The notes under the pieces were generated by a model. The model saw only the letters and a program-made list of their open reading frames with translations. It was not told the origin of the DNA and made no database searches. Shown in pieces: positions 1 through 37,705 of a stretch of 37,715 nucleotides of DNA. The stretch lies in assembly GCA_964200075.2 (NCBI GenBank), contig CAXNAA020000015.1:1-37715 (forward strand). Reading direction: 5' to 3'. The DNA is from Sphacelaria rigidula (lineage: Eukaryota). The translations under genes and the position numbers were made by a program. Positions within the stretch are counted from its first letter, which is position 1, and each line of letters starts with the position of its first letter.

Positions 1-529
1 GATCATGAGTACACTCCCCCTCCCCCCTCTTTGACACTCCCCCCTTTTTTTCTGCCTTTATCTTGTCTCTCTGTCCAGTTTCCTCACGTGCTCGCCCTTT
101 TTATACCTTGGATACGTCTATCTTGTGGATAATGACCGCGACTGTATCGCTGGGAGATCATTTGATGTGCGACAATCAGTCAGTTCATCCAGAGGGGAGC
201 CTACAGTTCCCGGCAATCTACAACACGTTTGGAAGATCACTCAAGAGTCCTCTGTACGATTGAGGCTCTTGATATTGTAGTATTTTGTTAGGGTTTTTAA
301 CCCCCGGACGAACAGCGAACATATTCTGTAGGGCATGTAGATTGCAAGCGTCTTGTGTTGCTCGCTGGCCCGAGGAAGCCACACCGCCTGTCTACCCTCA
401 CTTACGGAAGCACGTTCGCTTCCAAAAGACTCGGCAAGTCAGGGCGACAAAACATTAAGAGCCAATCCCAGACACCCTCTTGGTGATTTTGAGCTTCAGT
501 GCTCAAAGGACAAATGTGCGCGTTAGCAG

Positions 530-766
530 GGATGGAGCCGTGAAGGTACAAAGCTTGGCTCGTGCGCGTGCGTCGCGGCGTGAGACTGCGCTGCGCCGAG
601 AACGGCATGATAAAGCGAGGCATATTCAGTGTCTAGGAAGAAGAATGCTTGCTCGACAAGAGCTGCGCGCTAGAGCGGAGAAAACGCAGGCTGCCATTCG
701 GCTTCAGTGCCTGGTCAGGTCCAAGCTGGCGAACTCGGACGTCGCTATTAAACGCGCACAGCACAG
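530..766 (+). CDS. Internal exon of giant IQ-motif/acidic-repeat gene; three IQ-like motifs
   Basis: Acceptor gttagCAG|G (527-529) and donor CAG|GTGTGC (767). Translation DGAVKVQSLARARASRR...RHIQCLGRRMLARQE...AAIRLQCLVRSKLA matches the [ILV]Qxxx[RK]xxxx[RK] pattern. No start ATG, so the gene begins upstream. Confidence 0.75.
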
Positions 767-1288
767 GTGTGCGTTGTGTGGACCCCCTTGAATTTGTCGA
801 TCCTTGCGACATGTTGGTGCATTTTCTTACAAGTTTCTGTGAGTCATCGTCCATCTTTTTTGTCGATCGAGACGAAGGAACTAACAGCCATAGACACGGA
901 TCCTCCCCGCGGCCACAGCTTGTCCGAGCAACTGCACTTCAACATATCTATCCCCAGTTGATCCCGCGGTGCTGCTGTAGGGGGCCAAGGCTGCCCGACA
1001 TCACATGAGTGAGTGCTTGTTTTTGCCGCGCGTGAGCCACGACCTGACGTGAAACTTGATTCTTCTGGTGGTTTCGCTCACTTCCTGAATTTATTTTTAC
1101 TCGAGAGGAAACCGCGACGAAAACCACCGAGACAGAGCCAACTGTGCATGCACGGGGTGCACCCACCAACTCGGTGTCCGTTTCCCAATCTCCTGCCCTT
1201 TTCATGGTGAACTTCCCGTTATCGCCCCAGAGCGGCGGTGTCGATCGAGTCCCTTGTGCGGAAAAGAGCAGCCCACGCTCTTTTACAG

Positions 1289-1320
1289 GAGAAGAAGCGG
1301 AAACGGGCAGCGGCCCTCAG
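1289..1320 (+). CDS. 32-nt micro-exon (EKKRKRAAAL-R) completing an IQ motif with the next exon
   Basis: Acceptor ctcttttacag| and donor CAG|GTACGG. Joining to 1727 gives EKKRKRAAALRIQNLTR. Its 5' phase does not match the 766 donor (see findings). Confidence 0.55.
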
Positions 1321-1726
1321 GTACGGTGTGGTGTAAAGGCGGCGGCATGCCATCATGGTTTGAAAGACAAGCAAACGCACTATCTACTCGGAGTTAGCCG
1401 ACGCCGCCCATGATATTAAAACGTACTATGATTAAATTTTGTTGTACGCAACACTGATCGATCGTCTGTATCCAAGCATGTTACACGGTATTGCTCAGCA
1501 CGCAACCGGGGGAATATGTTGTGAATTTTTACCGCTGTTTCGAAGACACAGCGTAAACTCCAGTCCGTTTACAACGATAATAAATATATCAGCATTGTGA
1601 GCATTCCAAATTCGCTACTACGCATCGAAACAGAATTGCGTCGATTCGACGAAAAGGGCCATCTTCTTGTCTAAGGCTTACGTACGAACGCCGATCTCAT
1701 AATCTTTGCCCTTGTACCTCTACAAG

Positions 1727-1877
1727 GATCCAAAACCTAACGCGCATCAGGGCAGCTAAAGTGAAGGCCAATATGCGACGCAAGAACAGACAGGCAGCCG
1801 TAAGGCTGCAGAACCAGGCTCGGGCACTAGCAGCACGCCGACAGGCGGACGAACGACGCCGGCAGAGAAACGCAGCG
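1727..1877 (+). CDS. IQ-motif exon (not in the ORF track)
   Basis: Pyrimidine tract tctttgcccttgtacctctacaag|, donor GCG|GTACGT. Encodes IQNLTRIRAAKVKANMRRKNRQAAVRLQNQARALAARRQADERRRQRNAA. Confidence 0.75.
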
Positions 1878-2583
1878 GTACGTAGCAAGGTTTGAGGGAA
1901 GCATGCGTGTGTTTCATGGCGATTCAGCGCCGTTTTGATAAAAAAAAAAACTGTATAGCGTGGTCCTGGAAGTCCTGAGCGTTATGTTATAGGCCAGAAT
2001 TGTACATACTCCATGCTGGTCGTGAGTCATCCCACGATAGGGTGTACTCATGATCATGCATGCCATAGTCATCAGACCTATCGGTAGGGGGGAGCATTTC
2101 ATTTAACGAAAAACAAGGCTCATAGGTGTGCCAGGCGACCTGCCACACTCGTGGTGCACTTGTATTTGGACCAAAACGATGTCAAGCAGTATAAATGAGC
2201 ATGTTATTGATAACACGCTCGTTCGAACAATCGTCGCTGCTTTCAGCGACGATTTGACTTGGAATTTCGTGCAAGAAGTGGACCAAAATACCCCGCCTCC
2301 CCCCCCGTATCGTAGGATGACTCTCGTGTCGTTCTGGAGCCCGGTGTTGCCAGAAGCTTGAGATTGACCCTGGATGTAGCGGCACTTGACTGATGAAATT
2401 CCGCCATGTTTGGGTATGTAATTTGTCAGCATAGTTAGTGGCTGTACTATTCGCTCCTTTCCAACGGCGGCTAACGCCTAATGGGTACACCGTTTTGTAG
2501 CGAAGGTGCTATGGGGCTTTCCCCGGCACTATCCCGCTACTCGTGTGAAGACAGGAAAACTCACGTCCCGGTCAACACCACAG

Positions 2584-2757
2584 GTCAAGCTCCAGACACA
2601 GGTGCGCCGGGTGGAGGCTGCGAGACAGGTCGATGCTAGACGCCGCGCAGTGAGAGCTGTTCAGTGTTCACAACGGAAAGCGCACATCCTAAATCAGGAG
2701 AAGAAACAGCGCGCGGTCGTCCGCATCCAAGCTGCTGCCAAGGGCAGGCGCGCGAGG
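2584..2757 (+). CDS. IQ-motif exon
   Basis: Acceptor caccacag|, donor AGG|GTAAGA, phase 0 at both ends. Joins as RNAA|VKLQTQVRR...VVRIQAAAKGRRAR. Confidence 0.8.
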
Positions 2758-3230
2758 GTAAGAACAAACCTAGCTGGAACTTTAACGGTGACTCCAGCGT
2801 AGGGAATGCCTTTGAGCGCTCTTCATGGTTCGGTCCCGTCGTTTCCTGCGAACATGAACGCTCCCTCTCGGGATGTTTCAGTGAAACGATCAAAGATCAG
2901 GACACCGTGACCATGTATGCCAATCAAGATGCCGTGCAAGATACTTTTTGATCGCCTGGCGTGCTCGTCGCGGCTCTGGAGGGCTTTCGTTCGACAACCA
3001 AGATCAAACAACAGCCACGAGACTTGAGTCTAGATACCGCGATGTCCACCGACACGTACCCTATATCGTTAGCATTCAAGCACCACCCTTCTCTCGCGAG
3101 AACGCGGGCCATTGTCAAGATTGGCGAGTCATTCAATTGCGCGAAACAGAACCCCGAACAAACTATTGTTGCTACTATTCGCAGTCAGGAGGTCATTGGT
3201 CACTACTATTTTTCGATCTACGTACCTCAG

Positions 3231-3752
3231 GCACACGTGAACGACCTCAAACACCGACGACGCGAAGCTGCTTCCTTGAAGATCGCGTCGGTGGTCCGCG
3301 GTAGACAAGCCAGGCGTCGCGTATCTCAGCTGCGACAGGAGCAGATTGCGGCGACATATATTCAGGAGCTCGACAGACGTGGAGACGACGAACGACACGT
3401 GGAAAATACCGAAGGAGGCGAACCACATGCGGCGGCTACTCGGGGTGACGAGGCAGCAAGAACGATACAGAAGGTTGCCAGGGGTAGGGTCGATCGGCTC
3501 TACTTGAAGACTGTTCGAGAGCAGAAATCAGCAGCAATGGCGATGCAGAAAAAACGCCCCGAAAGTACTGAGCCAACAGGGATTCAGGAAGTTGCTGGAG
3601 GCAAGGACGACGAAGAGGACTCGACACTTATCACGGAAGAAAAAGCAGCAGCGTTCATGATGCAGGAAGATCCCGAGGGACAGGGTGATCGCACGAACGC
3701 CTTGTCACATCTCTCGATTGACCAACGTCCCGTGAATGTGATCAAACACGAG
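3231..3752 (+). CDS. Exon with last IQ-like motifs and transition to acidic sequence
   Basis: Acceptor tttttcgatctacgtacctcag|, donor GAG|GTAGGT, phase 0/0. Contains LKIASVVRGRQARRR and TIQKVARGRVDR. Confidence 0.8.
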
Positions 3753-4855
3753 GTAGGTATGAATGCATCTTGCGAGGGTAAAGCATGCTGTCCAAGTTAC
3801 TACAGTAGTGGTCGTCGTTTCGGTCTATCTAGTCAACATGACAGCACTAGCTCACGGCATTTACGCCGCCACAGCTCTATACGTAGCCAGACCCTTTCGG
3901 CTCCCCATATGTTTCATGAGAGCCATCTATGATCGCGACTTTGCCCGTGAATCTTTGATCATAGGCCCGGGATTCGTGCGAGCAACTTGTACACGAAACG
4001 ATGTCCGATGTGACGGAATCATCCCTCGCCAAGATAGCCGCCATTCGTGCTGCTCGGAGGACGCAGAGTGAGATTCACGTACTCGTCACGGGCGATGAAC
4101 TTCCTTCGCACGTACCTTCCGACAAAGAGAATGCTGAACACCAGGGCAAGGTGACCCCTCAAAAGGTCTCAAAGTGCTGAGCCACGGGTGTTGATCTTGG
4201 ACATGCAGCCTGCCACTAGAACCGCTACTTTTCAACACGGGCTGGTCCCGACGAAAGAGGGTGAAAACATTCCTCGGTCACTTTCCTCCGTAGATCGCTG
4301 ATGCGCTCTTGTCCTCAAAAGAGAAGTTCTACGGTAATATTTTCAAATCTCGAGCAAAGAAAATCCAAGGCCTGTGAATTCCTAAGGGCTTCGAAATTGC
4401 AAGTCGTTGTTTTTTCCACTACTCCTTTGGTCATAGATTGTGATTGGCGACGAGTTAGGAGTCGGAAACGTTCCCGCCGCGAGGCAAGATCATTCAGACC
4501 ATTGTTTTCGGACAATCAAACAAGAATTCAGCCAATCCGATCCTTTGTGCGAAAATCCCCCTACCAGCCTCCACCAGTCCATATTTAGTGTGCTGTCATA
4601 GCGTGGAGTGATATCTTTCCAGGCGCCTCATCCGAAACCCCAGCGGACTCTGAAGTAGCTATACAGTACAGCGGAGAAACTCTTAGCGCTTGGTCGAGGA
4701 GATCTATGCGGTACTTTCCACGGACTCAATTCTTGACCCCTTTCGTTGCGGCCAGTCTGTGAGGATGGCAAACTCATGGAGCTTGAACAGCCTAGCCCTG
4801 GGGTATCGTCTATTCCGGTGTTGTCTATCAGCCGATAGATTCTCTCACCAACGGA

Positions 4856-4894
4856 CTATTGACAAAACTTGTGATCTATTGACAAAACTTGTGA
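4856..4894. repeat. Intronic tandem duplication, 20-nt period (CTATTGACAAAACTTGTGA x2)
   Basis: Exact 19-mers at 4856-4874 and 4876-4894. Confidence 0.9.
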
Positions 4895-5045
4895 CAGTTC
4901 ACACTCACTACGATCACGTACATTGTTAGTCATGGGCGCTACGTTTGTAGACCCTGGGGCAGAAATACCGTGTGTGGGTAACATCGCTCACCCCATCCAC
5001 CTTACTATCCCCCGGCATGCTTGAATCATTTTCATACTCCAACAG

Positions 5046-29000: not shown

Positions 29001-32000
29001 GTGAGTAGTCCCGTGAATGTTTCGATGGAGTCGACGGCTGATGACGGGCAGGAGAACACAGAATTGGCCGACCAGCAAGCTACCGGTGACGAGGCCAGTG
29101 TGGCCAATCCGGAGCCGGCGAGCGCTGCTCCGTTTGAGGCGGCCGCGACCGGGGCCGAGGTGGAGGTGGACGCCGCGGTATCCGGACATGAGCAGACGGC
29201 TGTGGCAGAGGCGGACGATGCACGGGTATACGGCGCAGAGGTCGACGAATCCACCATGGCATACACGACGACAGCTCCTCCCACGAATGGTGACGAAGAT
29301 AACCCGGCGTCGGGGGCCGACGCAGTGGTTGAAGTAATTGCCACCGGTCGTGTGGAGGACCCGGATGCTGAGGGTGCAGCCCGCCAGCCGATCGAGCAGC
29401 CGATCGTCGCGGTGGGTAGCCCCGCGAGCGTTTCGATAGAGTCGACGGCTGTTGACGGGCAGGAGAGCGTAAGATCGACTGACCCGCAAGCTACCGGCGA
29501 TGAGTTCAGTGTTGCAGATCCGCAGTCGACGATCGCTGCCCCGGTCGAGGCGGCCGCGATCGGGGGCGAGGTGGATTCGGATGGCGCGATATCCGGACAG
29601 AAGCAAGTGACTCTGGCAGGGGCGTACGATATATTGCTAACACGCACGGAATTCATGAAATCCGCCATGTCGGTCACGACGACAGCTCCTCTCACGAACG
29701 CTGATGAAGATGGCCCAGCGCCGGTGGCCGACGCAGTTGTTGATGTAATTGCCACCGCTCGTGCGGACGACCTGGATGCTGAGGGTGCAACCCTCGAACC
29801 TATCGAGCAGTCGATCGTCGCGGTGGGTAGTCCCGCGGGTGTTTCGGTAGTGTCAACGGCTGCTGACGGGCAGGAGGGCACAGGATTGGCTGACCAGCAA
29901 GCAAACGGTGATGAGGCCAGTTTGGCCGATCCAGAGTCGACGATTGCTGCTGCGGTCGAGGTGGCCGCGGCCAGGGGCGAGGTGGAAGTGGATGCCGTGG
30001 TATCCGGACACGAGCAGGCGGCTGTGGAAGAGGCGGACGATATAGTATCGGCAGGTGTGGAGGTCGATGAATCCGTCATGGCGGACACGACGACAGCTCC
30101 TACCACGAACGGCGACGAAACTGATCAGGCATCGGGGGCCGAAGTAGTGGTTGATGTGATTGCCACTGGTCGTGCGGACGACCCGGACGCTGAGGATACA
30201 GCCCACGAACCAACCGAGCAGCCGGTCGCCGCGGTGGGTAGTCCCGCGGGTGTTTCGGAAGCGTCGATGGCTGTTGACGGGCAAGAGAACACAGGATCGG
30301 CTGACCAGCAAGCTACCGATGACGAGGCCAATGTGACCAATCCGGCGTCGATGATCGCTGCTCCGGTCGAGGCGGCCGACGAGGTGGAAGTAGACGCCGC
30401 GGAATCTGGACACGAGCGGGCGGCCGTGGCAGAGGCGGAAGATGCACGAATGACCGGCGGAGAGGTCGACAAATTCACCATGGCGGACACGACGACAGCT
30501 CCTCACACGAACGGTGACGAAAATGCTCCGCCGTCGGGGGCCGAGGCAGTGGCAGGTATAATCGCTTTTGGTCGTGTGAACGACCCCGACTACAAGATTG
30601 AAGCCTACGAACCGATCGAACAGCCGATCATCACGGTAGGTAGTCCCGTATGTGCTTCTTTAAACGCGATGGCTGTTGAAGGGCAAGAGAACATCGGATC
30701 GGCTGACCAAGCTGCTGGCGATGCGACCACCGCCGTCGATCTAGAGTCTATGACTGCTGCTTCAGTCGAGGTCGCTGTGGCTAAGGGTGACGTGGAGGTG
30801 TGCGCCGCCGCACCAATACACCAGCAGGCGGCTGTCGTGGAGGTAGGCGATGTATTGTCGGCAGGCATAGTGATCGACAAATTTCCTGTGGTGCACATCA
30901 CTACGGCCTCTTCTCCGAAAGCTAATGAAGATAACCCAGCATCGCCGGCCGAGGCAGTAGTCCATGTAAGAGCCGCTGGTCGTGTGGACAACCTGGACGC
31001 TGAGGGTGAAGCTCTTGAATTGATTGAGCAGCCGATCGTCGCGGTGGATAATCCCGCGGGTGCTTTGATTGACGCGACGGCTGTTAGCGAGCACGAGAAC
31101 ATCAAACCGTGTCAGCAGCAGCCTACTGGCGATGAGGCCAGTGCCACAGTTCCGACTTCGACGACTGCTGCTTGGGTTGAGGCCGCCGCCACGGGGGGTG
31201 GGGTGAGGGTGGGCGCCGCCGCATCAGCACAAGAGCAGGCGGCTGTGGCAGAGGTGGACGACGTATTGTCAGCAGGCGCAGAGGTTGATGAATTCGCCAT
31301 CGCGGACACGACGACAGCTCCTCTCACAAACGCCAATGAAGATGACCCGGTACCGGCGGCCGAGGCAGTGGCCGTTTCAACTTCTTCTAGTGGGGTGGAC
31401 GACCCAGGCCGAGAGAGTGCAGCCCGCGAACCGATAGAGCAGTTGACCGCCGCGGTGGATAGTTCTGCGGGTGTTTCAACACAGGCAACGGTTGTTGACG
31501 ACCAAGAGAGCATAGAATCGCCTGATCAGCAAGCTACAGGCCATGCGGCCCGTGTAGCCGATCCGGAGTCGACAACTGCTGCCCCGGCCGAGGCGGCCAC
31601 GACCGGGGGCGAGGTGGTGGTGGACGTCGCGGTATCCGAACCCAAGCAGACGGTTGCAGTAGAGGTGGGAGATGTGCCAACGGTAGGCCCAGAGATAGAC
31701 GAATCCGCCATGGCGGACACGACGACAGCTGCTCCCACAGACCCTGATGAAGATGGTTCAGCGTCGGGGGCCGAGGGGGTGGTCGATGTAATTGCTACTG
31801 GTCGTGTGGACGACCCTGACGCTGAGAATGCAGCCTGCGAACCGATCGAGCAGCCGATCGTCGCGATGGATAGTCCCGTGAGTGTTTCGATGGAAGCGAC
31901 GGCTGATAATGGGCAAGAGAATATACAATCGGCTGACCAGCAAGCCACTGGAGATGTGGCCAGTGTGCCCAATCCAGAGTCGACGACTTCTGCTAAGGTA

Positions 32001-35000
32001 GAACCCGCCGCATTAGGACGCAAGCAGGCGACTGTCGCGGACACCGGCGATGTTCTGTCGGCAGGCATAGAGGTAGACGAAACCTCCGTGGTGCATATCA
32101 CCGCGGGCCCCTCCCCGAACGCCGATGAAGCTTGGCTAGCGTCTAGGGTCGAGACAGTGGCCGACGAACGTGCTGCAGATCGTGTGGACGACCCGGACGC
32201 TGAGAGTGTAACCTGCGAACCGATCAAGCAGCCGATCGTCGCGATGGATAGTCCCGTGAGGTTTTCGATGGAAGCGACGGCTGTTGGCTCGCAGGAGAAT
32301 GTACAATCGGCTAACCAGCAAGCTATTGGAGATGTGGTCAGGGCGCCCGACCCGGAGTCGACGACTTCTGCTCAGGTAGAGCCCGCCGCATTAGGACGCA
32401 AGCAGGCGACTGTCGTGGACGCCAACGATGTGCTGTCGGTAGGCGTAGAGGTAGACGAAACCTCCGTGGTGCATATCACCGCGGCCCCCTCCTCGAATGC
32501 CGATGAAGATGGCCTGGCGTGTGGGGCCAAGACAGGGGCCGACCAACGTGCTGTAGGTCGTGCGGACGACCCGGACGCTGAGGGTGCAGCCTGCGGACCG
32601 ATCGAGCAGCCGATCGCCACGATGGATAGTCCCGCACGTGCTTTCATAGAGACGATGACTATTGACGGGCAGGATAACATCGAATCGCGTCAGCAGCAAA
32701 CTGCTGGCGATGTGGTCAGTGCGGGCGATCAGGAGGCCATTACTGCTGCTTCCATCGAGGCCGCCGCGACCGGGGGTGAGGTAGAGGTGGGCGCCGCCCC
32801 ATCAGGACGCGAGCAGGCGGCTAATGCAGAGGCGGATGATGTGCTGTTGGCAGGTGCAGAGATCGACGAATCCGTCGTGGTGAAAATCACCACGGCCCCT
32901 TCCCCGAAAGCCGATGAAGATGGCCGGGTATCGCCGGCCAAGATAGTGGCCGACCAACGTACTGCTGACCGTGTGGAAGACCGGGACGCTGAGGGTGCAG
33001 CCCGCGCACCGATCGAGCAGCCAATCGCCGCGGTGGATAGTCCCGCGGGTGCTTTGACAGACGCGACGGCCGTTGACGGACAAGAGCATGTCGGGTCGTG
33101 TCAGCAGCAAGGTTCCGGCGATGTGGCCAGAGTGGCAGATCCGGAGTCGCCGGCCGCTGCTCCGGTCGAGGCCGCCGCGACCGGGGACCAGGTGGAAGTG
33201 GACGCCGCGGTATCCAGACACGAGCAGGCGGTTGTGGCAGAGGTGGAAGATGCGATGACAGCGGGCGCAAAAAATGACGAATCTGCCGTTGCGGACACGG
33301 CGACAGCTCCTCCCACGAACGCTGATGAAGATGAGCCGGCGTCCGCGGCTGAGGCAGCGGTCGATGTAAGCTCTTCTGATCATATGAACGACCCGGACGC
33401 TAAGGGTGGAGCCCGCGGACTGATCGAGCAGCCGGTCGCTGTAGCGGATAGTCCCGGGGGTGCTTCAGTAGACCCGACAGCTGTTGACGGGCAAGAGGAC
33501 GTAGGATCGGTTGACCAGAACGCTACCGGTGATGAGGCCAGTGCGACAGATCCGAAGTCGACGATTTCTGCTTCGATCGAGGCGGCTGCGACTAAGGGTA
33601 AGGTGGAGGTGGGTGACGCGGTATCTAGACACGAGCAGGCGGCTCTGACAGAGATGAAAGGTGCGCTAACGGCAGGCGCAGAGTTCGACGAATCCGACAT
33701 GGTGGACATCATCACGGTTCCCTCGACGACCGTTAAGGAAGATGACCTGGTGTCGGCGGCCAATGCTGTGGTCGATATAGGGGCTACTGGTCGTGTGGGC
33801 GACCTGGATTCTGAGGATGCCGCCCCTGAACTGATCGAGCAGCCGATCGCCGCGGTGGACCGTTCTGTGGGTGCTTTGAAAGAGGCGGCGAATGTTGACG
33901 GGCAAGAGAACGTCGGATCGCGTCAGCAGCAAACTGGTGATGAGGCCAGTGTGGCCGATCCGGAGTTGACGGCTGCTGCTCCGGTCGAGGTCGCCGCGAC
34001 CAAGGGTGATGTTGACACAGGGGTTGCCGAACCCGGACACGAGCAGGCGGCTGTCGCAGAGGCAGACGATGCACTGTCGCCAGGGGCGGAGGTCGACGAA
34101 TCTGTCGTGGCAGACACGACCACAGCTTCTTCCCCGAACGCTGATAGATATGGCCAGGTGTCGGCGGCCGAGACAATGGCTGGCGAAAGTGCTGATCGTC
34201 GTGTGCACGTCTCGAACTCGGAGGGTGCATCCCTTAGAAGGATCGAGCAGCCGATCGCCGCAGTTGATAGTCACATGGGTACCTCGATAGAGGCGACTGC
34301 TATAGACGGGGAAGAGAACGTCAGATCTCTCAACCACCGAGCTATTGCCAATGTCTTCAGTAAAACAGGTCCCGAGTCGGCAACCGTTTCTCCGAGCGGG
34401 GCCACCGCGACTGAGGGCAAGGTGGAAGTAGGAGCTGCCGCAGCTGGACGCGAGCAGGCGGTTGTCGCAGAGGCGGGCGATGTACTGTCTGCGAGCGCAG
34501 AGGTTGACGAATTTTCCATGGCCAACATGATCACGGCCTCAACTTCGAGCGCTGATGGGGATGGGCGGGCGTCAGCAGCCGAGGCAGCGGACGACGCAAG
34601 CACTACTGGTCGTGTGGACGACCCGGATGCTGGCGATCGAGCCCGCGAACTGATCGACCAGCCGATCGCCGCGGTGGATAGTCCCGTGAGTGCTTCGATA
34701 GGGGCGACGGCTGTCAAGGGGCAAGAAAGCATCGGATCGCCTCATTATCAAGCTACAGGCGATGTCGACCGTACGACCGATCCGGAGTCCAGGACTGCTG
34801 CTCCGGTCGAGGTCGTGGCGACCGGGGATGTGGTGGAATTGGACACCGCCGCATCTGAACACGAACAGGTGGCTATCGAAGAGGTGCTCGATGCATTGCC
34901 GGTAGGCGCTGAGACCGATGGCTCGATTGTGGTTGACACGATGAGAGCTTCTCTCTCGAGGGCTGATAAAGATGGCCGGGTATCGCCGGCCGAGGCAATG

Positions 35001-36431
35001 GCCGACGAAAGTACTGCTGATCGTGGGGACGAGGCGAATTCTGAGGTAGCAGCCCACGAACTGATCGAGAAGCCGGTCGCCGCCGTGGATAGTCCTGTGG
35101 GTGGTTCGGTACAGGCGACGGCTGTAGAGAAACAAGAGCTCGTCGGATCGCCTCAACAGCAAGCGTTTAGGGTTAGGGTCCGCGAACCGACCGACCAGTC
35201 GATCGCTGCGGTGGATAGTCCCGTGGGTATTTCGAAGGAAGCGACGGTTGCTGTTGACGAGAAAGAGAGCGTAAGATCGTCTAACCAGCAAGCCACTGAT
35301 GATGTGGCCAGTGCGACCGACCCGGAGTCCGCGACAGCTGCTCCGGTAGAAACCACCGCGACCGAGGGTGAGATGGATGCAGGAGCTGCTGCAGCTGGGC
35401 ACGAGCAGGTGGTTGTTGCCGAGGCGGACGATATGCCGTTGGCAGGTGCGGAGGTCGATGCATCGACTGTGGCGGAGGTGATTACGGTCGCTTTCTCGAA
35501 CACTGACGGAGATAGGTGGGCATCGACGGCCGAGGCAGTGGCCGATGGCTGTGCTGCTGGCCGTGTCGGTGAGCCGGACGCTGACGGTCGACCCCTTGAA
35601 CTGATCGAGCAGCCGATCTTCGCTATGGATAATCCCGTGGGTGCTTCGATAGAGGCGACGGCTACTCAAGTGGAGGTCGCCGTGACTATGATTGGGGTGA
35701 AAGAGGACCTCAGTGGATCTATCCATGAGCGCGCGCCCGTTGCAGAGGTGCGTGGCGTACTGGACTTTGATCTGAAGGTCGAAGCCCCCGCCGTGATGGG
35801 CGATGTATCAGCTTCTCCTTCAAAAGTCGATCAACGTTGGCCGACGGAGACAGCCGACGCAGCTGGTGACGAAAGTGCTGCCAGTCGTGTTGACGAGCTG
35901 GGCTGCCAGAGTTCAGAAAAAAAGCCACCTAAGCTGCCGATCGTCACAGTTCATAGCGTTGAGCCTTCGCCTGGTACGGCGGCAGCCGATGGGGAGGAGA
36001 ATTCACAGATCGCTGGTGCCGCAGATGTAAACGTCGGAACTGCTGCTCTGATCGAGGTCGCTGTGACTCGGCAAGAGGTAGACGTAGGCGTCTCCGTGTC
36101 TTCAGGCCAGCAAGTGACTATTGCAGAGGTGCATGATACTGCCGTCGATACTTTGCTGGGTTCAACGGAAGATGAGGAGAAGAAGGCACAAGCGTCCGAC
36201 CGGGGAACTACTGGCTATATCACTCGTGTTGTTGATCCGAAGCCTGACAACGCTGCCCCAGTCGAGGCCGCCGCACCCGAGGTTGAGGTCGAAGCGCCTA
36301 TCGCTGCATCCGGAATCGAGCAGGTAGCTATTGCAGAGGTGCGTAACGTGTTGTCGGCAGGTACAAAAACCGGAGAGTCCGTCGTTGTGGACGCGTCTCC
36401 CCCGAATGTTGATGAAAATTGCCAGGACTAA
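5046..36431 (+). CDS. Giant exon encoding ~10,460 aa: acidic linker (~370 aa) followed by a 137-aa tandem repeat region rich in A/D/E/V/T/S/G/P
   Basis: Acceptor ttttcatactccaacag|CGG in phase 0 with the 3752 donor. No stop for 31.4 kb. The TAA at 36429-36431 is supplied by an inserted element. Confidence 0.88.
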   Translation, partial: RVMFEGAGPVDQELSAAHEFQIQLLASIGAHVVANRQKEAESTMGAVMSAAGGDCEQSQELSEQEICQQRGEESEAELLGDIILTENAPPEDVSSEIGSAGDVFCDLDGDRVLSRMSLRVGFCSTDDGASAPLVAISTVLDDTADKEDGSLSLSVTESDVGYCDGLTPPVVESTIRTEGFSSSPVKDEGRTPVEQFAPETSGETEQGGVSPKSLRLGIDVVTEIPTHSGEENGDALPVARAPEEARISTEVDSRASDDEDLGCAAMPLHHEEAIGVTISTQLEYAGVSGDATADTGGVELVEDDSVDRLQVDPSVAAVQAENQGSVPSTAVSTSDTFDEVEGKCLVLSSMKVDAESAVGEKKEAMNADGRENVRTLNQRSAQDAASAADEELTTAAPVETTTTEDEVEVDVTASVHEQAAGTGVGDTLSAGEADLSNMTDSTTVPPSNPDGDQQASTAEAIDDESATGRVNNQDSDGAAREIILTPIAAGDSSMGAATQATTVDVLENVESPNRQATDDVASTVDPELTTTAPIKAGTTRGEVEVDAAVSAHEHVAAPEVDEVLLTGAEANESAVADMATAHPANVDGHGLAPAAEAVADGSVANRVDDPDSECIASKSLDTTIIVVDTSIETSTVVTAVDGQGNVRTPDENSTDDVKGALYPDSATTAALEATTTVGQVEVDVAAFGHEQMAVADARDVVSAVAEADESAVADMNAASTLDAAGGQRASAAEAVAGGSDAGRVDDPDSEGAVRDMNDKPIAIVDGPVGASTEATTVGVQGDVGMPHQQATDDVASVIGPEVMTTGVLKAAATDGEVGVDVVAYGHEQVSVADVHDVLSAGPEADQSALADKAAESISDAAGDGRESATEPVADESVVARMDDSDADGTLASLDTPIAAVDWPVGAPIESMAADTQEDERTSDQQATDNVASSADPECTTAAPLKATASGSELEVDLAASGHEQVDFAMVRDMSSAGAQAHDSTVAEMTTAPPSNDYGDSRAWVTGAAADGRSAGRVYDPHSQDGVRELIEQPVAAVDSTVCALMETMTVDERENVGSPNPQVTEVVARPADPESTAAALVEASATGGEEEVEAAESRHKQVAVAEGRSVLLVGPEADNFAVAGITIASPSNADRESRAWGTEAVADGGAAGRVDGPDPKGAAQRLTEQPNTAVDRSMSASIGAATVYWQEDVRSLHQQDTDDVASAADSESKTAAPIDAATAGSEVGVDAAASGHKEAAAGEPCDVLSVGTGADDLTVADVTTAPPTNADGDGRASTAAETVTDIRVEDPESTAAALVEAAAPEGEVEVDVAASRHEQDDVPEGGDVLSTRPDAGDNAGRDTIIAPPSNADDHRRASTAEAVGDVSATGHMDDRDCEGSVRELTKQPTAVVGSLVGASTHATTVEVQQIVVSPNQQAKGDPVSVEDPASSISAWFGAAATGDKVAADAVASGHEHVAVQEVRDVLSAATVAEDTTAADIALDPSSNANEDGRLSTANAVVDRSTTGRVDDPDSEGAVREPIEQAISAVDSPVCASMEATAVDGRENVEFSNQQATYDVLSATGPESTTVASVEAAATGDEVEVDAAASGHEQAPVAVVRNVLSVEPEDDDSTAADITVALPLKADKDGKASEAVTDEGVAGRVDDSNPGGAARERIEQLITAVDSGVRASIKGTTVEEQENVGSPHQQAMDDAVSAVNQASMTATAVQAAATGVEVEVDAAVSRHEQAPVAEACDVLSAGAEADDSTVADMTTAPLPRIVGDVRAFVAEAVADICAAGREDDPNSKVAARKLVEQPIAAMDSPLAVSIDATAVEEEEDVGSPHQQARDNVASAANPDSTTAAPVEVAAIGGEMEGDVAAPGHEQAAVAEVRDVVSVEPTTNDSTVTDIAAALPPNTDEDGRALVTEAVTDGGAAGRVDDPDSEGSAHKLCEQLVPAVDSAVHASTEGTAVEEQGSVESPHHHATDDATSPAGLESTTAAPAEVAAIGGKVAEDAAASRHEDVAVAEVRDVLSAEPEGDDLTAADVTVALLSNADEYSRAVAAEATTDGGATGRVDDPDSEGEARELLDQAIVAGSSAVGASIEALEGQENVGSPQQQAKDGVVSAVEPESVSASPVEATVADGEEEVDAAPSRHEQVTETDARDVLLVGAAADDLTMTDTTTALPSNADEGSRASVVDAAADGSAAGREDDPDSKGAARKLVEQPIATADSPVRASTEVTAADGQENIGSLHQQATDDLANAADSESTNAALIKAAATVVEVKRDTGGSGQEQVAVAEVGDVLLAGAVTDDLTVADMATAPTLSADEADRELAAGAVADVRPAGDVDDPEAEGVVHELIKGPIAAVDSAVRASIGAMTIDERENVACPNQQAENDVASTADPESTTAAPVEVAAAAGEVEMDGAASEHEQVAVTVVGGVLSAGAEADDSSVMDMTTAPPTSTGGDGKASTSDAVADEVAGRRMDDTECESKAHELIEQPINVVDGPVGASNEVMTVNGKEIVETPHQHATEDVANTADLEATTASPVEAHAAWGEVGVNVVESGHEQAAVVEVEGTLLAGAEIDERAITDMTTALPLNADGNGQASAAEVVVDGHARGGVVDPNVSGAPCKPTEPAIAAVGSPVSALVESRAVGELENIGSRHLQAAGDVASAADLESKTAVPVESTATGGEVEVGSAVSRHEQAIVAEACDVLLARDEAKDSIVADMTTTPPSNAVGDGPESAAKAVADGSATGRLDDQDSEGAAACKPIEKPIAAMRSSVGASIEATAADGQGNIGSPEQQATGDVASAADPRPTTAAPVEAAATGGEVRVENTVSGHEQAPVAEADNALSAGAEVDEFTVADMITAPRSSADEGSRAPAAETVVDVRAAGRVDDLGSEGGARELIEKSVVVVDSPVGASIEVDVQENLGSSVHQATDDVVGAADPGSMTAAQVEATAIGGEVEGRAAASNHEQSAVAEADEVLLTGAEVGESAVADSLTAPLTNADKDDPAPAAKTVADDRSAGRVDDPDADGRVLKLIEQPMDAVDSPLSAFTDATTVDGQELVGSRYQQAAGDVVSAGDLESTTAAAVKAAATGGEKEADAAVFGHEQATVAEVKDAPTTGAKEDEPAIAAPTTALPTNANEDEPASATEAVTDVSSTGCVYNLDLEGAAREPIEQPIPVVDSPVDASIDTAAVDGSDKIGLADQEATGDGASAKDLQSTTAAPVEASVTEGEVEVGGAVPGHEQATVAEADDILSAGAEVDESAVVHITAATSPNSDGDGRALPAEAVTDERAAGCVDNANAERAALDLIEQPIAAVDSLVSASIDTAAVDGQENVGSSDHQATGDEANAADSESTIAAPIESTATGGEVEIDAAVSGHEQAVVAEVDKLAMADTTTGPPTSADEDALVSGADSVVDEIATGRVGDPDAKDATLERIEQPTAAVDSPVRASIELTAVDGQGNIESADPQSTGDVAGVVDPESTTAASVEASEAKSEVEVGGAFSGHEQVAAAEANDALSAGAGIDESAVVHNTTAPSPNADGDDRASPAETVAEERASDRVSGLSSECSAFELIEQPIVTVDSPVGGLIDTAAVDRQQNVGSPDYQATGDEVNVVDPDSTTAVPVEAAATGGEVEMDAAASAHEQVAVAEADDILSADAKIDESAMAATAPPTNADSDDPASGAEAVVDVGSIGGVDDLDVKGAAREPVEQPIAAVDSPVSVSIESTAIDRQEDFEAPDPRATSDVAGAADPERTTAAPVEAAATGGEVEMDAVASAHEQVAVAEADDILSAGAKVDEFAMANATTAPPTNADSDDPASRAEAVVDVIATGRVDPDAEGAAFEVIEQPIAAVDCPVGGSTESTAVGGQDNIESADQQATGDVASVVDPESTTAAPVKAGTAEVEVEVDVDGAVSGHEQAAVAEADDALLEGAEVDESAVVHITMAPSPNADEDGRASPVETVLDQCASDRAEDPESKGAPLELIERNAVVDSPVGASTDPAAVNGQENVGSRQQRNTGDEISAADPTSTTAAWVEATATGGEVELGGVVSEHEQTAVAEADGAFSADIDVDESAVHIIPKADEDDRASSAETVADQRAANRVDDSDANGAALELIEQPMIAVDSPVGALTDATTVDGQEDLGSLEQQTTGDEVRAPDPESMTAAAVEGTATRGEVEVGASASAHEQAACSRISTREANEILLTGAEADESAMVDTTTAPPTNADEDDPAPAAEVVVDITSSGGVDDLDAKGAAREPIKPPIIVVDSPVGTSIDTVAVDGQEDVGLPYQQATGDVVSVADPESTTAARVEATATEGGAKVGAAASALQQPTIVEADDMLSVGVKVDESAMADTTTAPPTKADGDGPAPAAEAVVDVSDTDGVDDSDSESAAYEPIEQPIVVMESLVSIPVESTAVDGQENAGSADQQANGNEARMDDPESTTAGPVEAAATGGEVEVGAAVSGYGQTAVAEAHDILSGDAEVDESVMTDTTTAPPTNAHEDDPASGTKELVDESATGRGDDANAEGAAHKHFEQPFAAVDSPVDVSVNATALDKRENVSSPDQQAAGDATRVADPTSTTAAPVEVVATRGEVKMGATASVHEQVAVADVEDAWMVGAAVGESVMADTTTAPVTKADEDDPASAAEAVVDASANGRVDDPDANGAALKSIEQAITVVDSPASVSITSIAVDERENVGSPVQQATGDDASVADPESTAAILVEAGATGGEVEMDAAASAHEQVTVAEADDALLIGAEVDESALANKTTAPPASADEDGPAPAAEAVVSEIATDRVDDPDAEDADRQPIEQPIAAVGSPVSVSIESTAVGGQENARSVDPQATGDEASVLDPESTVAAPVEAAATGSKVEMGAAAVSGHEQLTVEETDDMLWEDAEVDISAMADTTTAPPMNADEDDPASAAQAEVDKLAIGRVDDPDAEGAAREPIEQPISAVGIPMSVLLIDSRFVDGQEEVGTADQQATGCVARVLDPDATIAAMVDTTATGGEMEVGAAASTREQAAVAAVDDILSAGADVVESIMADTTKAPPTNGDENGPASAAEAVVDKSTIGRVDNPDADDVTREPIEQSIAAVGSPVSVSIESTAVDGQEIAGSADPPATGDKASVLDPELTTSGPVEAAATGDEVEYVDAVSVQEQVTVAEADDTLLTGAEVDESAMADTTTGPPPSGDKNHPASGANAAVDEAATGRVDDLHAEGAAREPIEQSIAAVGSPAGVPIESTAVDGQDNVESADQQAAGDEASMADPKSMIAAPVEVGAIGGEVESVDTVSVQEQVTVAEVDDTLLIGAEVDESAVAITTTGPPPSGDENHPASGADTVVDEAATGRVDDLHAEGAAREPVEPSIAAVGSTAGVPIESTAVDGQDNVGSANRQATGDEASMADPESMIAAPFEAGATGGEVESADAVSVHEQVTVAEVDDTLLTGAAVHESAIAITTTGPPASGDEDDPASGADTVVDVAATGRVDDPDAEGAARERIGQSIAAVGSPAGVSIESTAVDGQDNVGSADRQATGDEASMANPESTIAAPVEAGATGGEVEVDAAVPGHEQMTAAYTSDALSRDAEVDEPAMADTTTAALTSADEDGPAPVADAVIDVIATDRVDDPDAEGAAREPVEQSITAVDSLLDVSIESTAVDAGLADQQATGDVASMADSKSTIAAPVEAAATGGEVEANAAVSGNAHVTVAIADDTLLTCAEVDEFALVDTMTAPPTNGVQDGPATAAEVVVDVIVTRCVDDLDAQSAASVPIEQAIAAVGSPVSVSIESTAVDGQEEVGSADQQGTGDEASVAAPESMTAAAVDATATRGAVEVGAAASAHEQATVAKADDVVSAGAEVDESVMADTTTASPLNADEDGPTSAAEAVVGVIATGRVDDPGAEGAALEAIEQPIAAVGSYVSVMIESTAVDGQEEVQPPGQQATDEARVADPESTTSATVDATVTGGEMEVSAAASAHEQVAVADVDDILSAGAAVDESAMAVTTKAPATNSEEGGPASGVKAVVDVIATGRVGDPDAEDAVRELVKQSIAAVGSPVSVSVESTAVDGQENAESADQQTTGDEASVADPESTTACPVEAAAIGGEVESIGAVSVYEQVIMAEADDTLSTVAAADGSAIAVTTTAPPTNSDKTNPASGADVVVDLATTSRVDDPDAEGAAREPIEQSIAAVGSPGGVSIESTAVDGQDNVGSADQQTTGDEASVTNPESMVAAPVEAGATGGDVDMEAAVSGHEQVTVAKTDDTLLTRAAVDESAMADTTIAPRTNADEDGPAPAAEAVVDVIATGRLDDLDAEGAARQPIEQPMTVDDSPMSVSIGSTAVDGQAGVGSADQRATASVAAPESMTAAPIDVTATGGEMEVAAAASAHEQATVAEADDIASAGAEVDESVMADTTTAPPTNGDEDGPASAAEAVVDELATGRVDDPDAESSAREPTEQPIAAVGSPVSVSIESTAIDGREGVGSADQQASGDEASVTDPESTVAATVDATSRWGEMESDAAVSGHKKTTAAEANDILSAGAAVDESAMADTTIAPPINGDEENPATGAKAVVDVSTTGHTDDPDAEDADGEPIEQPIVAVGSLGSVLIESIAVDRRENAGSTDQQTTGDEASVVDPQSTIAAPLEAAATGGKVESVAAVSRHEQVAVAEADDTLSTGAGADEFALADTTTAPPTNADEDSPVPGAEAVVDKLATSRVDDPDAEGAAREPIGQSIAPVGSPVSVSMESTAVDGQENAGSADRQAAGDEVSVADPESRTAVTVDATTTGGDVEVSAAASAHEQAAVAEADDIVSAGAAADESAMADTTTCPPTNGNEDGPALAAEAVVDASATGLVDDPDAEDAACELIEQPITEVDSPAGVSIESTAADGQDNVGSADQQTTGDEASVADPESMIAAPVGAAATGGEVEVNAAVPGHEQVTVAEAHDTLSGGAEVDESTIADTTTAPHANFDEDGPAPAAEAVVDTIVTHCVDDPDAEGADLEAIEDPFAGVDSPVRVSIESTAVDGRDNAGSADENATGDETSVADPESVAAASVKAAATGSEVGMGAASISERGQISVVQADDKLLTGAEVDVSALADMTTAPDTNADEDGPSPETETVVDVIATGRVDDSDAEGAAIEVIEQPTAVDSPMSVSIESTTVDRQEELESPDQRATSDVADAADPESTTAAPVGAAAIGGEVEMDAAASAHEQVAVAEADDILSVGAKVDEFAMADTTVAPPTNADSDDPASRIVAVVNVGSIDLADDSDAEDAAREAIQQPVTAVESRAGPAPAANAVVDVIVTGRVDDPGAEDAAREPLEHLIAAVDSRVSVSVESAAIAGQENIVSADQQAAGDESCVADPQSTIAAPFQASMTGGEVEVDAAVSAHEQAAATEGQDERVVNAKVDESAMEDTTIAPLTNADEDGPAPAADAGIDAIATDRLDSPDAEGEGRESTEQPIAAVGSPADVSIESTVVDGQDNAKVADPRESGYDVSVAGPESTIAALVEVAANRGKVEVDAAVFGHEQAAAAEVEGERVIDAEVDESTMAGTTTAPPTNADEYDPAPAGDAVNDEIATCRMEDPDAEGAACQRIAQPIAAVSRLVSVSIDTAVVDEQENVESADQQATGDEASVADPESTTAATVDATATGGEVKSDAAASAHEQAVVAEGDDILSADAEVVESGMADMTTAPPLNADDDGPASGADAVVDVIATGRVDDPDAEGAAREPIEQPIAAVGSFASVSTESTAVDGQENVASTDQQATGDEASLADPQSMTAGRVEAAATGGEVDSDGAVSEHKEVTVTGADDILLTGAEVDESAMADTTTAPLTNADEDGPAPAAEVVIDVIATGRVHDLDAEGEDRETIKHSLIVVGSPVNVSMESTAADGQENAGSADQQATGEEVGVADPESTIAATVEAAATGGEVEVNVAVSGHEQTTVAGAEYAWMIGPEVDECGMAGTTTAPPTNGDETDPVPATDAVVDSIATSRVDCPSAEGAGSKPIEQRIAAVSSPVNVSMESTADDGQENTELADQQATGDEASVANPEPASAAPFEAAATGAEVEVDAAVSGHEQTAVAEADDARVYGAEVDESTMAYTTTAPPTNGDEDNPASGADAVVEVIATGRVEDPDAEGAARQPIEQPIVAVGSPASVSIESTAVDGQESVRSTDPQATGDEFSVADPQSTIAAPVEAAAIGGEVDSDGAISGQKQVTLAGAYDILLTRTEFMKSAMSVTTTAPLTNADEDGPAPVADAVVDVIATARADDLDAEGATLEPIEQSIVAVGSPAGVSVVSTAADGQEGTGLADQQANGDEASLADPESTIAAAVEVAAARGEVEVDAVVSGHEQAAVEEADDIVSAGVEVDESVMADTTTAPTTNGDETDQASGAEVVVDVIATGRADDPDAEDTAHEPTEQPVAAVGSPAGVSEASMAVDGQENTGSADQQATDDEANVTNPASMIAAPVEAADEVEVDAAESGHERAAVAEAEDARMTGGEVDKFTMADTTTAPHTNGDENAPPSGAEAVAGIIAFGRVNDPDYKIEAYEPIEQPIITVGSPVCASLNAMAVEGQENIGSADQAAGDATTAVDLESMTAASVEVAVAKGDVEVCAAAPIHQQAAVVEVGDVLSAGIVIDKFPVVHITTASSPKANEDNPASPAEAVVHVRAAGRVDNLDAEGEALELIEQPIVAVDNPAGALIDATAVSEHENIKPCQQQPTGDEASATVPTSTTAAWVEAAATGGGVRVGAAASAQEQAAVAEVDDVLSAGAEVDEFAIADTTTAPLTNANEDDPVPAAEAVAVSTSSSGVDDPGRESAAREPIEQLTAAVDSSAGVSTQATVVDDQESIESPDQQATGHAARVADPESTTAAPAEAATTGGEVVVDVAVSEPKQTVAVEVGDVPTVGPEIDESAMADTTTAAPTDPDEDGSASGAEGVVDVIATGRVDDPDAENAACEPIEQPIVAMDSPVSVSMEATADNGQENIQSADQQATGDVASVPNPESTTSAKVEPAALGRKQATVADTGDVLSAGIEVDETSVVHITAGPSPNADEAWLASRVETVADERAADRVDDPDAESVTCEPIKQPIVAMDSPVRFSMEATAVGSQENVQSANQQAIGDVVRAPDPESTTSAQVEPAALGRKQATVVDANDVLSVGVEVDETSVVHITAAPSSNADEDGLACGAKTGADQRAVGRADDPDAEGAACGPIEQPIATMDSPARAFIETMTIDGQDNIESRQQQTAGDVVSAGDQEAITAASIEAAATGGEVEVGAAPSGREQAANAEADDVLLAGAEIDESVVVKITTAPSPKADEDGRVSPAKIVADQRTADRVEDRDAEGAARAPIEQPIAAVDSPAGALTDATAVDGQEHVGSCQQQGSGDVARVADPESPAAAPVEAAATGDQVEVDAAVSRHEQAVVAEVEDAMTAGAKNDESAVADTATAPPTNADEDEPASAAEAAVDVSSSDHMNDPDAKGGARGLIEQPVAVADSPGGASVDPTAVDGQEDVGSVDQNATGDEASATDPKSTISASIEAAATKGKVEVGDAVSRHEQAALTEMKGALTAGAEFDESDMVDIITVPSTTVKEDDLVSAANAVVDIGATGRVGDLDSEDAAPELIEQPIAAVDRSVGALKEAANVDGQENVGSRQQQTGDEASVADPELTAAAPVEVAATKGDVDTGVAEPGHEQAAVAEADDALSPGAEVDESVVADTTTASSPNADRYGQVSAAETMAGESADRRVHVSNSEGASLRRIEQPIAAVDSHMGTSIEATAIDGEENVRSLNHRAIANVFSKTGPESATVSPSGATATEGKVEVGAAAAGREQAVVAEAGDVLSASAEVDEFSMANMITASTSSADGDGRASAAEAADDASTTGRVDDPDAGDRARELIDQPIAAVDSPVSASIGATAVKGQESIGSPHYQATGDVDRTTDPESRTAAPVEVVATGDVVELDTAASEHEQVAIEEVLDALPVGAETDGSIVVDTMRASLSRADKDGRVSPAEAMADESTADRGDEANSEVAAHELIEKPVAAVDSPVGGSVQATAVEKQELVGSPQQQAFRVRVREPTDQSIAAVDSPVGISKEATVAVDEKESVRSSNQQATDDVASATDPESATAAPVETTATEGEMDAGAAAAGHEQVVVAEADDMPLAGAEVDASTVAEVITVAFSNTDGDRWASTAEAVADGCAAGRVGEPDADGRPLELIEQPIFAMDNPVGASIEATATQVEVAVTMIGVKEDLSGSIHERAPVAEVRGVLDFDLKVEAPAVMGDVSASPSKVDQRWPTETADAAGDESAASRVDELGCQSSEKKPPKLPIVTVHSVEPSPGTAAADGEENSQIAGAADVNVGTAALIEVAVTRQEVDVGVSVSSGQQVTIAEVHDTAVDTLLGSTEDEEKKAQASDRGTTGYITRVVDPKPDNAAPVEAAAPEVEVEAPIAASGIEQVAIAEVRNVLSAGTKTGESVVVDASPPNVDENCQD
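6150..36425 (+). repeat. Coding tandem array, ~73 diverged copies of a 411-bp (137-codon) unit
   Basis: Homologous EQ(P)IAAV codons at 28161, 28572, 28983 and 29394 are exactly 411 nt apart. Manual count of the GRVDDPD-type marker gives ~73 units plus partials. Terminal units are degenerate and the boundaries are approximate. Confidence 0.93.
35166..35178 (+). repeat. Short telomere-like tract TTTAGGGTTAGGG at a rearrangement junction in the array
   Basis: Directly visible and not seen at this position in other repeat units. Confidence 0.6.
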
Positions 36432-36675
36432 TGCCGAGATAACCCCCCCACAAAAAGTGTACCGGAGACCATCCGACAAACCGGCTGCGATCCCACTATT
36501 GGGCTCGTTTGCAGCGATTTCGCCCACGTGAGGGGCGTATAGCAGCCTGAAATCAGCTATAATGCCCAAATAAGCCGCGTCGTGCAGCGCGAAACCAGCT
36601 CTAACGGCATTTTTTATCATCGCCTCCGTGCACGTTTTTGGCCAGTTCGGGGGGGGGCTATCTCGGCAGCAGTCA
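36426..36675. mobile_element. MITE-like non-autonomous DNA transposon (~250 bp) inserted in coding sequence
   Basis: Left end GACTAATGCCGAGATAACCCCCCC (36426-36449) is the reverse complement of right end GGGGGGGCTATCTCGGCAGCAGTC (36651-36674) at 21/24 positions. CAG flanks both sides (36423-36425, 36676-36678). The empty site reads in frame as NCQAETVVNE. Confidence 0.85.
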
Positions 36676-36678
36676 CAG

Positions 36679-37387: not shown

Positions 37388-37502
37388 GTGAGCGCAAGTG
37401 AAACCTTGATATTGACGTCGTAGTCACCGCAGACACTATCGAGGTTGTTGGCATTTCGTCACACACAGCCGGAGGTGGCGATAAAACAATACGCTTTTGT
37501 AG

Positions 37503-37705
37503 GCGAGATGGGAAGGGGCGAAGTCACCCCGCCACTGACCTCAGGCGTTAATTTGGACCAAGCAGACGGTCAGGGTATGGATGATAATGTTGGAGTATCA
37601 AAAGATACCATAAAGCCTACTGACGTGTCGTTACTGGGGGACACAAGTGTCACAGAGTCATCCTACGATAGGGGGGGGGGCTTACTCATTTGTTGCTTGC
37701 CTTAG
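37503..37705 (+). CDS. Candidate further exon (GEMGRGEVTPPLTSG...)
   Basis: Acceptor cgcttttgtag| is phase-1 compatible with donor 37388 and the composition is similarly acidic. The 3' end runs through a G10 tract and is uncertain. Confidence 0.4.

Follow-up and report, generated by a model that had tools for sequence, protein, structure and literature searches.

An acidic tandem-repeat open reading frame of 10,468 codons with a possible IQ-motif head in Sphacelaria rigidula

Giant disordered tandem-repeat proteins are a known kind. AHNAK, with ~5,900 aa, carries central 128-aa repeats encoded in one giant exon, and Plasmodium Pf332 is a ~1-MDa protein composed of degenerate Glu-rich repeats. 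Among proteins with IQ motifs, which follow the consensus [FILV]Qxxx[RK]Gxxx[RK] and are docking sites for calmodulin-like EF-hand proteins, ASPM is a giant with a long IQ array in a large exon. Obscurin is another giant protein with IQ motifs (PMC2196875). The PEVK/poly-E region of titin is described as a disordered, repetitive, Glu/Val-rich spring whose stiffness responds to Ca2+ and pH (PMC9100103, PMC6469411). In PEP-19, a disordered protein, an acidic part beside the IQ motif is reported to steer Ca2+ binding to calmodulin (PMC5122967).

The locus described here lies in a window of 37,715 nucleotides of S. rigidula, i.e., the whole stretch of DNA that was analyzed (assembly GCA_964200075.2, contig CAXNAA020000015.1, positions 1 to 37,715), and its features are collected in Table 1. 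It has in common with AHNAK the giant single exon, the tandem units of ~130 residues, the presumed cytoplasmic setting and a non-repeat head, but the repeats of AHNAK, basic or amphipathic in character, form a family that is already known, whereas the unit found here is acidic, orphan and predicted to be unfolded. Pf332 is likewise a megadalton, strongly acidic and lineage-restricted protein of degenerate tandem repeats, and it is largely disordered, as the present tail is predicted to be; however, it is an exported parasite protein with another repeat and a Duffy-binding-like head, and no sequence match to it appeared in our searches. With titin PEVK the likeness would be that a giant cytoplasmic protein contains a lengthy repetitive segment, rich in Glu and Val and disordered (here by prediction), which acts through chain entropy. 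The titin units are of ~28 aa and Pro/Lys-rich, many small exons encode them, and Ig/Fn3 domains lie on either side, while the present array has 137-aa units, is Lys-poor and strongly net-negative, occupies one exon and gave no Pfam or sequence match.

Regarding the upstream exons, PEP-19 and neurogranin carry an acidic sequence beside the IQ motif, and the 3231-3752 exon resembles them in having an acidic stretch directly before its strict IQ. These proteins have ~60-80 aa and one IQ, whereas the present locus has several of these motifs and, in the case of a fusion, an acidic tail of 10,000 aa; no sequence relationship was found. In IQ proteins of the myosin, ASPM or obscurin type, a motor, CH, Ig or GEF domain precedes the IQ region. 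Obscurin and ASPM differ by their folded Ig, CH or GEF domains, of which none was detected in the head ORFs scanned, the N-terminus being outside the window. Plant IQD scaffold proteins, characterised by an IQ67 domain and a microtubule-binding DUF4005 region, share with the head only the basic pI and the IQ motifs, and the six head ORFs scanned gave no match to DUF4005 or any other IQD-specific Pfam family at E<=1. The nearest working analogies would be the PEVK/poly-E spring for the tail and the PEP-19-type acidic-IQ regulators for the head (PMC9100103, PMC5122967).

Table 1. Coordinates of features recognized or predicted in the 37,715-nucleotide window.
Feature	Positions	Strand	Details
First visible IQ exon (predicted)	530..766	+	acceptor ttagcag|GG, donor CACAG|gtgtgc; GC 0.586
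Short basic exon with degenerate IQ-like motif (predicted)	1231..1320	+	in-frame joins 766>1231 and 1320>1727; GC 0.611; no Pfam match
IQ-like exon (predicted)	1727..1877	+	two relaxed IQ regex matches; donor GCAGCG|gtacgt
IQ exon (predicted)	2584..2757	+	one strict IQ regex match; acceptor accacag|GT, donor GCGAGG|gtaaga, in frame
Exon with acidic stretch followed by IQ, second half acidic (predicted)	3231..3752	+	one strict IQ regex match; donor CACGAG|gtaggt
Candidate extra exon	3965..4150	+	62 codons, both ends in phase 0; sites by inspection of the sequence: acceptor ...atag|G, donor CAAG|gtgacc
Giant ORF	5025..36431	+	10,468 codons; 0 in-frame stops
Giant coding exon	5046..36431	+	10,461 codons and stop; first in-frame ATG 5052
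Unique acidic N-terminal part of the giant exon	5046..6059	+	338 aa
Array of ~74-75 units of 137 aa (411 bp)	~6060..36425	+	unit HMM; ORF residues 346..10467
TIR insert, MITE-like	36432..36666	.	235 bp; inverted arms and 9-bp flanking duplication
Degenerate array continuation	36667..37387	+	open in the +1 frame; ends at donor GAG|gtgagc

The preliminary description of this DNA had reported an acidic repeat tail of ~10,000 aa in one giant ORF, and the count of codons, the absence of stops and the array of unit HMM matches confirm it. On the plus strand the next longest ORFs have 326 and 275 aa, and the longest ORF of the minus strand has 625 aa. The GC content is 0.51-0.53 at 1-6000 and 0.59-0.63 at 6001-36000, the latter region showing positive GC and AT skew throughout. 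To our knowledge, the 31.4-kb exon is among the longest uninterrupted coding exons known.

A non-coding satellite that is open by chance in one frame would be another way to explain such an ORF, and the predominance of GNN codons (58%) lowers the chance of stops. Nevertheless, when the observed differences of each unit from the consensus were placed randomly, using the observed substitution spectrum and the array's own composition, the 68 full units were expected to carry 88.8 +/- 9.0 in-frame stops (the lowest of 200 runs gave 69), whereas none is observed; units are treated as independent in this simulation, so that the number of events is overstated, by too little to matter. The other five frames do carry stops, ranging from 71 to 636 over 5025..36431 (439 and 636 in the two remaining plus-strand frames, 103, 71 and 273 in the minus-strand frames). 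Furthermore, 29 of the 73 unit periods deviate from the length of 137 aa, extending from 81 to 197 aa, and every one of these length changes is a multiple of three. A satellite is thus already strongly disfavoured, and we consider it highly improbable. Since all length changes are in frame and stops are absent where ~89 would be expected under neutral drift, the giant ORF is a genuine selected coding sequence of titin/AHNAK scale, in a eukaryotic locus with GT-AG introns. Long antisense ORFs of up to 625 aa (18689-20566) are also seen on the minus strand across 5111-36800; they seem to be a side effect of a repeat that is rich in GNN codons and poor in stops, as the minus-strand frames still hold the stops given above.

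The array was delineated with a profile HMM built from the giant protein itself, which gave 79 matches, 68 of them full (>=131 of the 135 profile positions). Tandem Repeats Finder reported a 411-bp period over 8914..35164 in four blocks with 69-76% matches, and two further, shorter rows with periods of 402 and 378. The units share on average 48% amino acid identity in random pairs and 54% in adjacent pairs. At the DNA level the best unit-to-unit identity is 0.57-0.91 per unit, and identity falls with distance from 0.733 at lag 1 to 0.633 at lag 60. The most diverged units are those at the array edges, a pattern that homogenisation through unequal exchange would be expected to leave. Contigs of sequencing run X1, a DNA run that may be the source of the assembly, cover 108..7294 with no difference. 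The range of unit identities, its decay with distance and the agreement of these contigs argue that the array is not an assembly artefact and that the units are old. One X1 contig skips 91 bases at 7252-7344, with just 23 letters on its shorter side and hence weakly; this is probably a mis-join of neighbouring units or an allelic length variant.

Comparison among units yielded a dN/dS of ~0.7, with mismatch frequencies of 0.286, 0.299 and 0.341 at the three codon positions, and the unit alignment contains no invariant column and none that is even 90% conserved. Selection on the array keeps frame, length and composition, and individual residues are hardly constrained. No internal sub-repeat was found within the 137-aa unit (best circular shift z = 2.5). 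Similarity to the unit HMM beyond that of shuffles was absent from the unique N-terminal part, the 3231-3752 exon, the candidate exon at 3965-4150 and the ORF at 37424-37702. The unique part also contained no Pfam family above cut-off, found no usable match in the protein atlas and was modelled by AF2, from the single sequence only, with a pLDDT of 35.8.

Concerning relatives, the 137-aa repeat had not been recognised as any known family when first described, and a search with its profile was carried out here; it returned no match at E<=0.001 among 1.84 billion representative proteins. The unit likewise had no match at E<=1 among PDB sequences, and no Pfam family exceeded its cut-off in three ORF pieces of 500-1000 aa, the unique N-terminal part or the downstream ORFs. 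A word-indexed search with the product of 5046-8045 among proteins of 1,751-5,000 aa gave no match, and the 498 pattern matches of a 409-aa, three-unit query in metagenome contigs included none that could be confirmed. The array itself is evidently absent from the collections searched, so these nulls mean that the collections contain nothing similar and do not mean absence in nature. The window had no match in Rfam and none in a tRNA search. By sequence comparison, the 137-aa unit is an orphan that falls in no known family (titin PEVK, AHNAK, mucin PTS and others), in line with its first reading.

The tail, taken from 5046, comprises 10,461 aa and 1,045 kDa with a pI of 4.05, 2,100 acidic (D+E) and 447 basic (K+R) residues. 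Its main residues are A (19%), V (11.6%), D (10.4%) and E (9.6%), K+R amount to 4.3%, and 58% of the whole consists of A, V, D, E and G, the five residues with GNN codons. In the unit, which carries a net charge of ~-0.16 per residue, Ala, Val, Asp, Glu, Ser, Thr and Gly are abundant. AF2 with an alignment of the 68 units returned a pLDDT of 49.2, a pTM of 0.11 and no DSSP elements. The charge-hydropathy value of the tail (H 0.476 vs a boundary of 0.470) lies on the boundary and is borderline because Ala and Val are abundant, so that the disorder call rests mainly on AF2 and on the absence of residue conservation. The tail is acidic and predicted to be disordered or unfolded, and the AF2 values support the initial view of a disordered polyanionic chain. 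CK2-type [ST]xx[DE] sites number 430 in the tail against 330 +/- 14 in shuffled sequences, a hint only, as the copies are not independent. The opinion that a non-tryptic protease would be needed for proteomics does not hold, since trypsin yields 246 peptides of 7-35 aa, of which 239 are distinct.

The repetitive composition, acidic and rich in Ser, Thr, Ala, Gly and Pro, would resemble that of acidic matrix proteins. By this analogy the product might be secreted or part of a matrix, as in cell walls or biominerals; it would have no relation to the IQ exons, and its signal-peptide exon would have gone unrecognised. Against this, no hydrophobic leader follows ATG 5052, no TM-like segment occurs in the tail (maximum 19-aa hydropathy 1.56), and inspection of 4181..5045 by eye gave no signal-like ORF. 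Moreover, N-glycosylation sequons are fewer than in shuffled sequences (15 vs 33 +/- 5), which is a hint only, as counts in repeats are non-independent. A matrix protein seems to us quite improbable.

Upstream of the giant ORF, translation of 1..5200 revealed short open segments in which Arg, Ala and Gln are abundant. The best-consensus chain consists of the five exons 530-766, 1231-1320, 1727-1877, 2584-2757 and 3231-3752, every join being GT..AG and in frame; an alternative acceptor at 1751 for the third exon is in frame too. GC is 0.55-0.62 in these exons and 0.45-0.53 in the introns. As the exon at 530 begins at an acceptor (528-529), the gene start should lie further upstream or outside the window. 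The conceptual head of 391 aa has a pI of 11.6, with 96 K+R and 45 D+E. In the ORF at 459-788 the Pfam IQ family (PF00612) reached 24.7 bits in two stretches, above its cut-off of 20.3, and in 3231-3752 it scored a sub-threshold 13.2 bits; at E<=1 it was not found in 1211-1333, 1584-1892 or 2482-2799, so that one of the five head exons exceeds the cut-off. The IQ regex gave two strict and six relaxed matches in the 391-aa head (2000 shuffles: mean 0.94, maximum 5) and none in the giant ORF. The earlier count of 8-10 IQ-like motifs therefore stands as to the presence of IQ, which the Pfam score bears out, but their number comes to ~6, with a few more degenerate ones by eye. Taken together, it is supported that the upstream exons would encode a very basic, helix-type, IQ-type segment.

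With the product of exon 531-764, a search among longer proteins gave no match. The nearest protein-atlas clusters of the 3231-3752 exon are IQ proteins (score 0.90, a weak lead), its one match among PDB sequences (E=0.13) is at chance level, and its sole match among longer proteins is P0001, a prokaryote-style ORF call of 368 aa on a 5-kb contig of another assembly. P0001 is 99% identical to the window and runs through the intron. Its allele has a frame-shifting length difference after the 3752 donor, in the segment coded near 3820-3835, and the frame change fits this stretch being intronic.

How the head relates to the giant exon is the main question of gene structure. The joins 1877>2584, 2757>3231 and 3752>5046 had been proposed as phase-consistent, and all are GT..AG and in phase at the sequence level; 4150>5046 keeps the frame as well. 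The CAG acceptor at 5043-5045 follows a pyrimidine-rich run and is in phase with both upstream donors. The candidate exon 3965..4150 forms a GC island (0.559 vs 0.486 and 0.487 in its flanks) inside the 1,293-bp intron of the 3752>5046 join. The frame set by the AG at 3963-3964 is open over 3965..4177 and meets a stop at 4178-4180, nine codons past the donor 4150/4151. This exon had no Pfam match. The conceptual fusion product has 391 + 10,461 = 10,852 aa and ~1.09 MDa, which agrees with the previously estimated size of more than 10,800 aa and ~1.1 MDa. A single gene is favoured by the gap of just ~870 bp between the alternative stop at 4180 and ATG 5052, the common strand and the acidic turn of the 3231-3752 exon. 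That the IQ exons are spliced to the giant one, whether directly or via the 3965..4150 exon, we regard as evenly balanced between true and false.

Almost as much weight, at somewhat below even probability, is given to two genes, in which case the last exon of the IQ gene would run from 3965 to the stop at 4178-4180, and a separate giant acidic-repeat gene would have its promoter in 4181..5051 and its translation start at ATG 5052. That ATG is well placed, as the first of the giant ORF and merely nine codons after the upstream stop. The exon-like island within what had been taken as intron and the stop soon after its donor also suit two genes, as does the lack of shared similarity between the head and the unique N-terminal part. 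However, a terminator, a promoter and two UTRs (the 3' one of the IQ gene and the 5' one of the giant gene) would all need to fit into 870 bp where introns measure 0.4-1.3 kb, the pyrimidine-rich acceptor is in phase with both upstream donors, and the giant protein alone would be without a recognisable anchoring or targeting part. The sequence fits equally the use of donor 4150 (one gene) and the stop at 4178-4180 with ATG 5052 (two genes). At 4856-4894, ~150 bp 5' of the giant exon, a 20-bp unit is duplicated perfectly in tandem (2.0 copies); this could be a promoter element, an intron element or a simple slippage product.

At the 3' end, position 36431 had been taken as the end of the gene, which our analysis does not sustain, as this stop was made at an insertion. 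In the last unit, the agreement with the HMM extends to position 43, at 36419, and TGC CAG GAC TAA follows; unit positions resume at 47 at 36673, directly past the insert and in the +1 frame. The arms of the insert (36426-36454 and 36646-36674) have 29 nt and are 83% complementary. Its 9-bp flanks (36423-36431 and 36667-36675) agree at 6 of 9 bases, share a derived first codon and are each aligned with positions 45-47 of the unit, where Pro-Ala-Ser is typical. The start-to-start distance of the flanks, 244, is 3n+1 and equals the observed frame change. The stop 36429-36431 occupies the Ser position of the left copy, and the right copy keeps the Ser codon. Because of the inverted arms, the alignment of the flanks to unit positions 45-47 and the match of the 244 spacing with the frame change, the arrangement bears the signature of a TIR element that inserted here and duplicated 9 bp of its target site.

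Downstream of the insert, 36667..37398 is an acidic stretch (D+E 40, K+R 18) whose 244 codons include no stop. It scores 18.3 bits against the unit HMM, which none of 1000 composition-preserving shuffles reached (maximum 9.7). The consensus-like donor at 37387/37388 precedes the stop of this frame by ten bases. We infer that the ancestral frame continued for at least 240 codons past the insert and into a further intron; further exons and the true or ancestral C-terminus are probably situated beyond the window. In the present sequence, either the protein ends early at 36431 or the insert is spliced out, and in-frame GT..AG pairs spanning it exist (e.g., 36407>36670), with weak sites. A 93-codon open segment with acidic stretches (37424-37702, plus strand) is located 3' of the donor and runs into the MITE end at 37654; it had no Pfam match, nor unit similarity as stated above, and may be the next exon of the giant gene.

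It could also be argued that the locus is a disabled or decaying allele, in which the TIR insertion at 36432 shortened the gene and the weak constraint reflects loss of function. The stop in the left duplication copy where the right copy has a Ser codon, the array remnant in precisely the frame that the insertion predicts, and the dN/dS of ~0.7, which would fit relaxed selection too, are compatible with decay. On the other hand, 31.4 kb 5' of the insertion are free of any stop or frameshift, the divergence of the units is much older than a plausible recent inactivation, the 244 downstream codons are still open, and the insert is removable as part of an intron through the weak sites mentioned. 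Decay is therefore, in our opinion, unlikely, and we retain the reading of a selected coding array whose present stop stems from the insertion.

Other mobile-like elements were also noticed. A MITE-like element of ~300 bp occupies 2024-2326 in the intron 1878-2583, with 22-nt inverted ends (2021-2042 and 2305-2326) that are 86% complementary; a third copy of the MITE end is found at the 3' edge of the window (37654-37679). The start of the window (1-21) belongs with these features as well, in that bases 1-14 are an inverted copy of the sequence at 2040-2078. The latter, like 2250-2293, is a hyper-abundant short sequence with a summed word depth of 38,000-168,000 in four runs; it often stands after G-runs and usually continues differently past 2078. 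Sequencing runs X1-X4 behave as DNA, their contigs running through introns. Within 1..7500, runs X5 and X6 (possible RNA) cover just 2040-2078 and 2250-2293, show no splice joints and are uninformative on expression.

With regard to mechanism, the explanation that we find best combines a coding giant array, a tail acting by bulk properties, a possible IQ fusion and a stop made by insertion, and as a whole it has in our judgement about an even chance of being correct. Frame, length and charge are conserved while the sequence drifts, so that action of the array via polymer physics appears most likely. The tail would then work through the bulk physical properties of a polyanionic chain, whose contour length would be ~3.8 um if fully extended. 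It might be an entropic spacer or brush that excludes volume and either spaces structures apart or bears load, and it might serve as a low-affinity sink for divalent cations; such a spacer, cation-buffer or tether function we infer from composition alone. If the head is fused, its basic IQ neck with EF-hand light chains would anchor the acidic tail, and Ca2+ could be coupled to the anchoring or the conformation of the tail. The present stop would have arisen where the small TIR element entered a unit. More tentatively, and with a probability that we place clearly short of even, all this may amount to one protein of at least 10,850 aa, in which a light-chain-loaded basic neck and a ~1-MDa orphan polyanionic chain, predicted to be disordered, form a Ca2+-responsive brush or tether, a kind that has not been described.

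As a gene prediction the locus is thus well supported, and the function given for it is a proposal. With the IQ head included, calmodulin-type Ca2+ sensing would be linked to a polyanionic chain of great length, an architecture that our literature search did not find. The insertion-made stop would illustrate that a small transposon is able to set a new end for a giant repeat gene. Finally, if expressed, the product would be a megadalton protein consisting almost wholly of one orphan unit predicted to be disordered, and it would offer a clean natural case for the purpose of a very long polyanionic chain, with selection acting on frame, length and charge and hardly on sequence.
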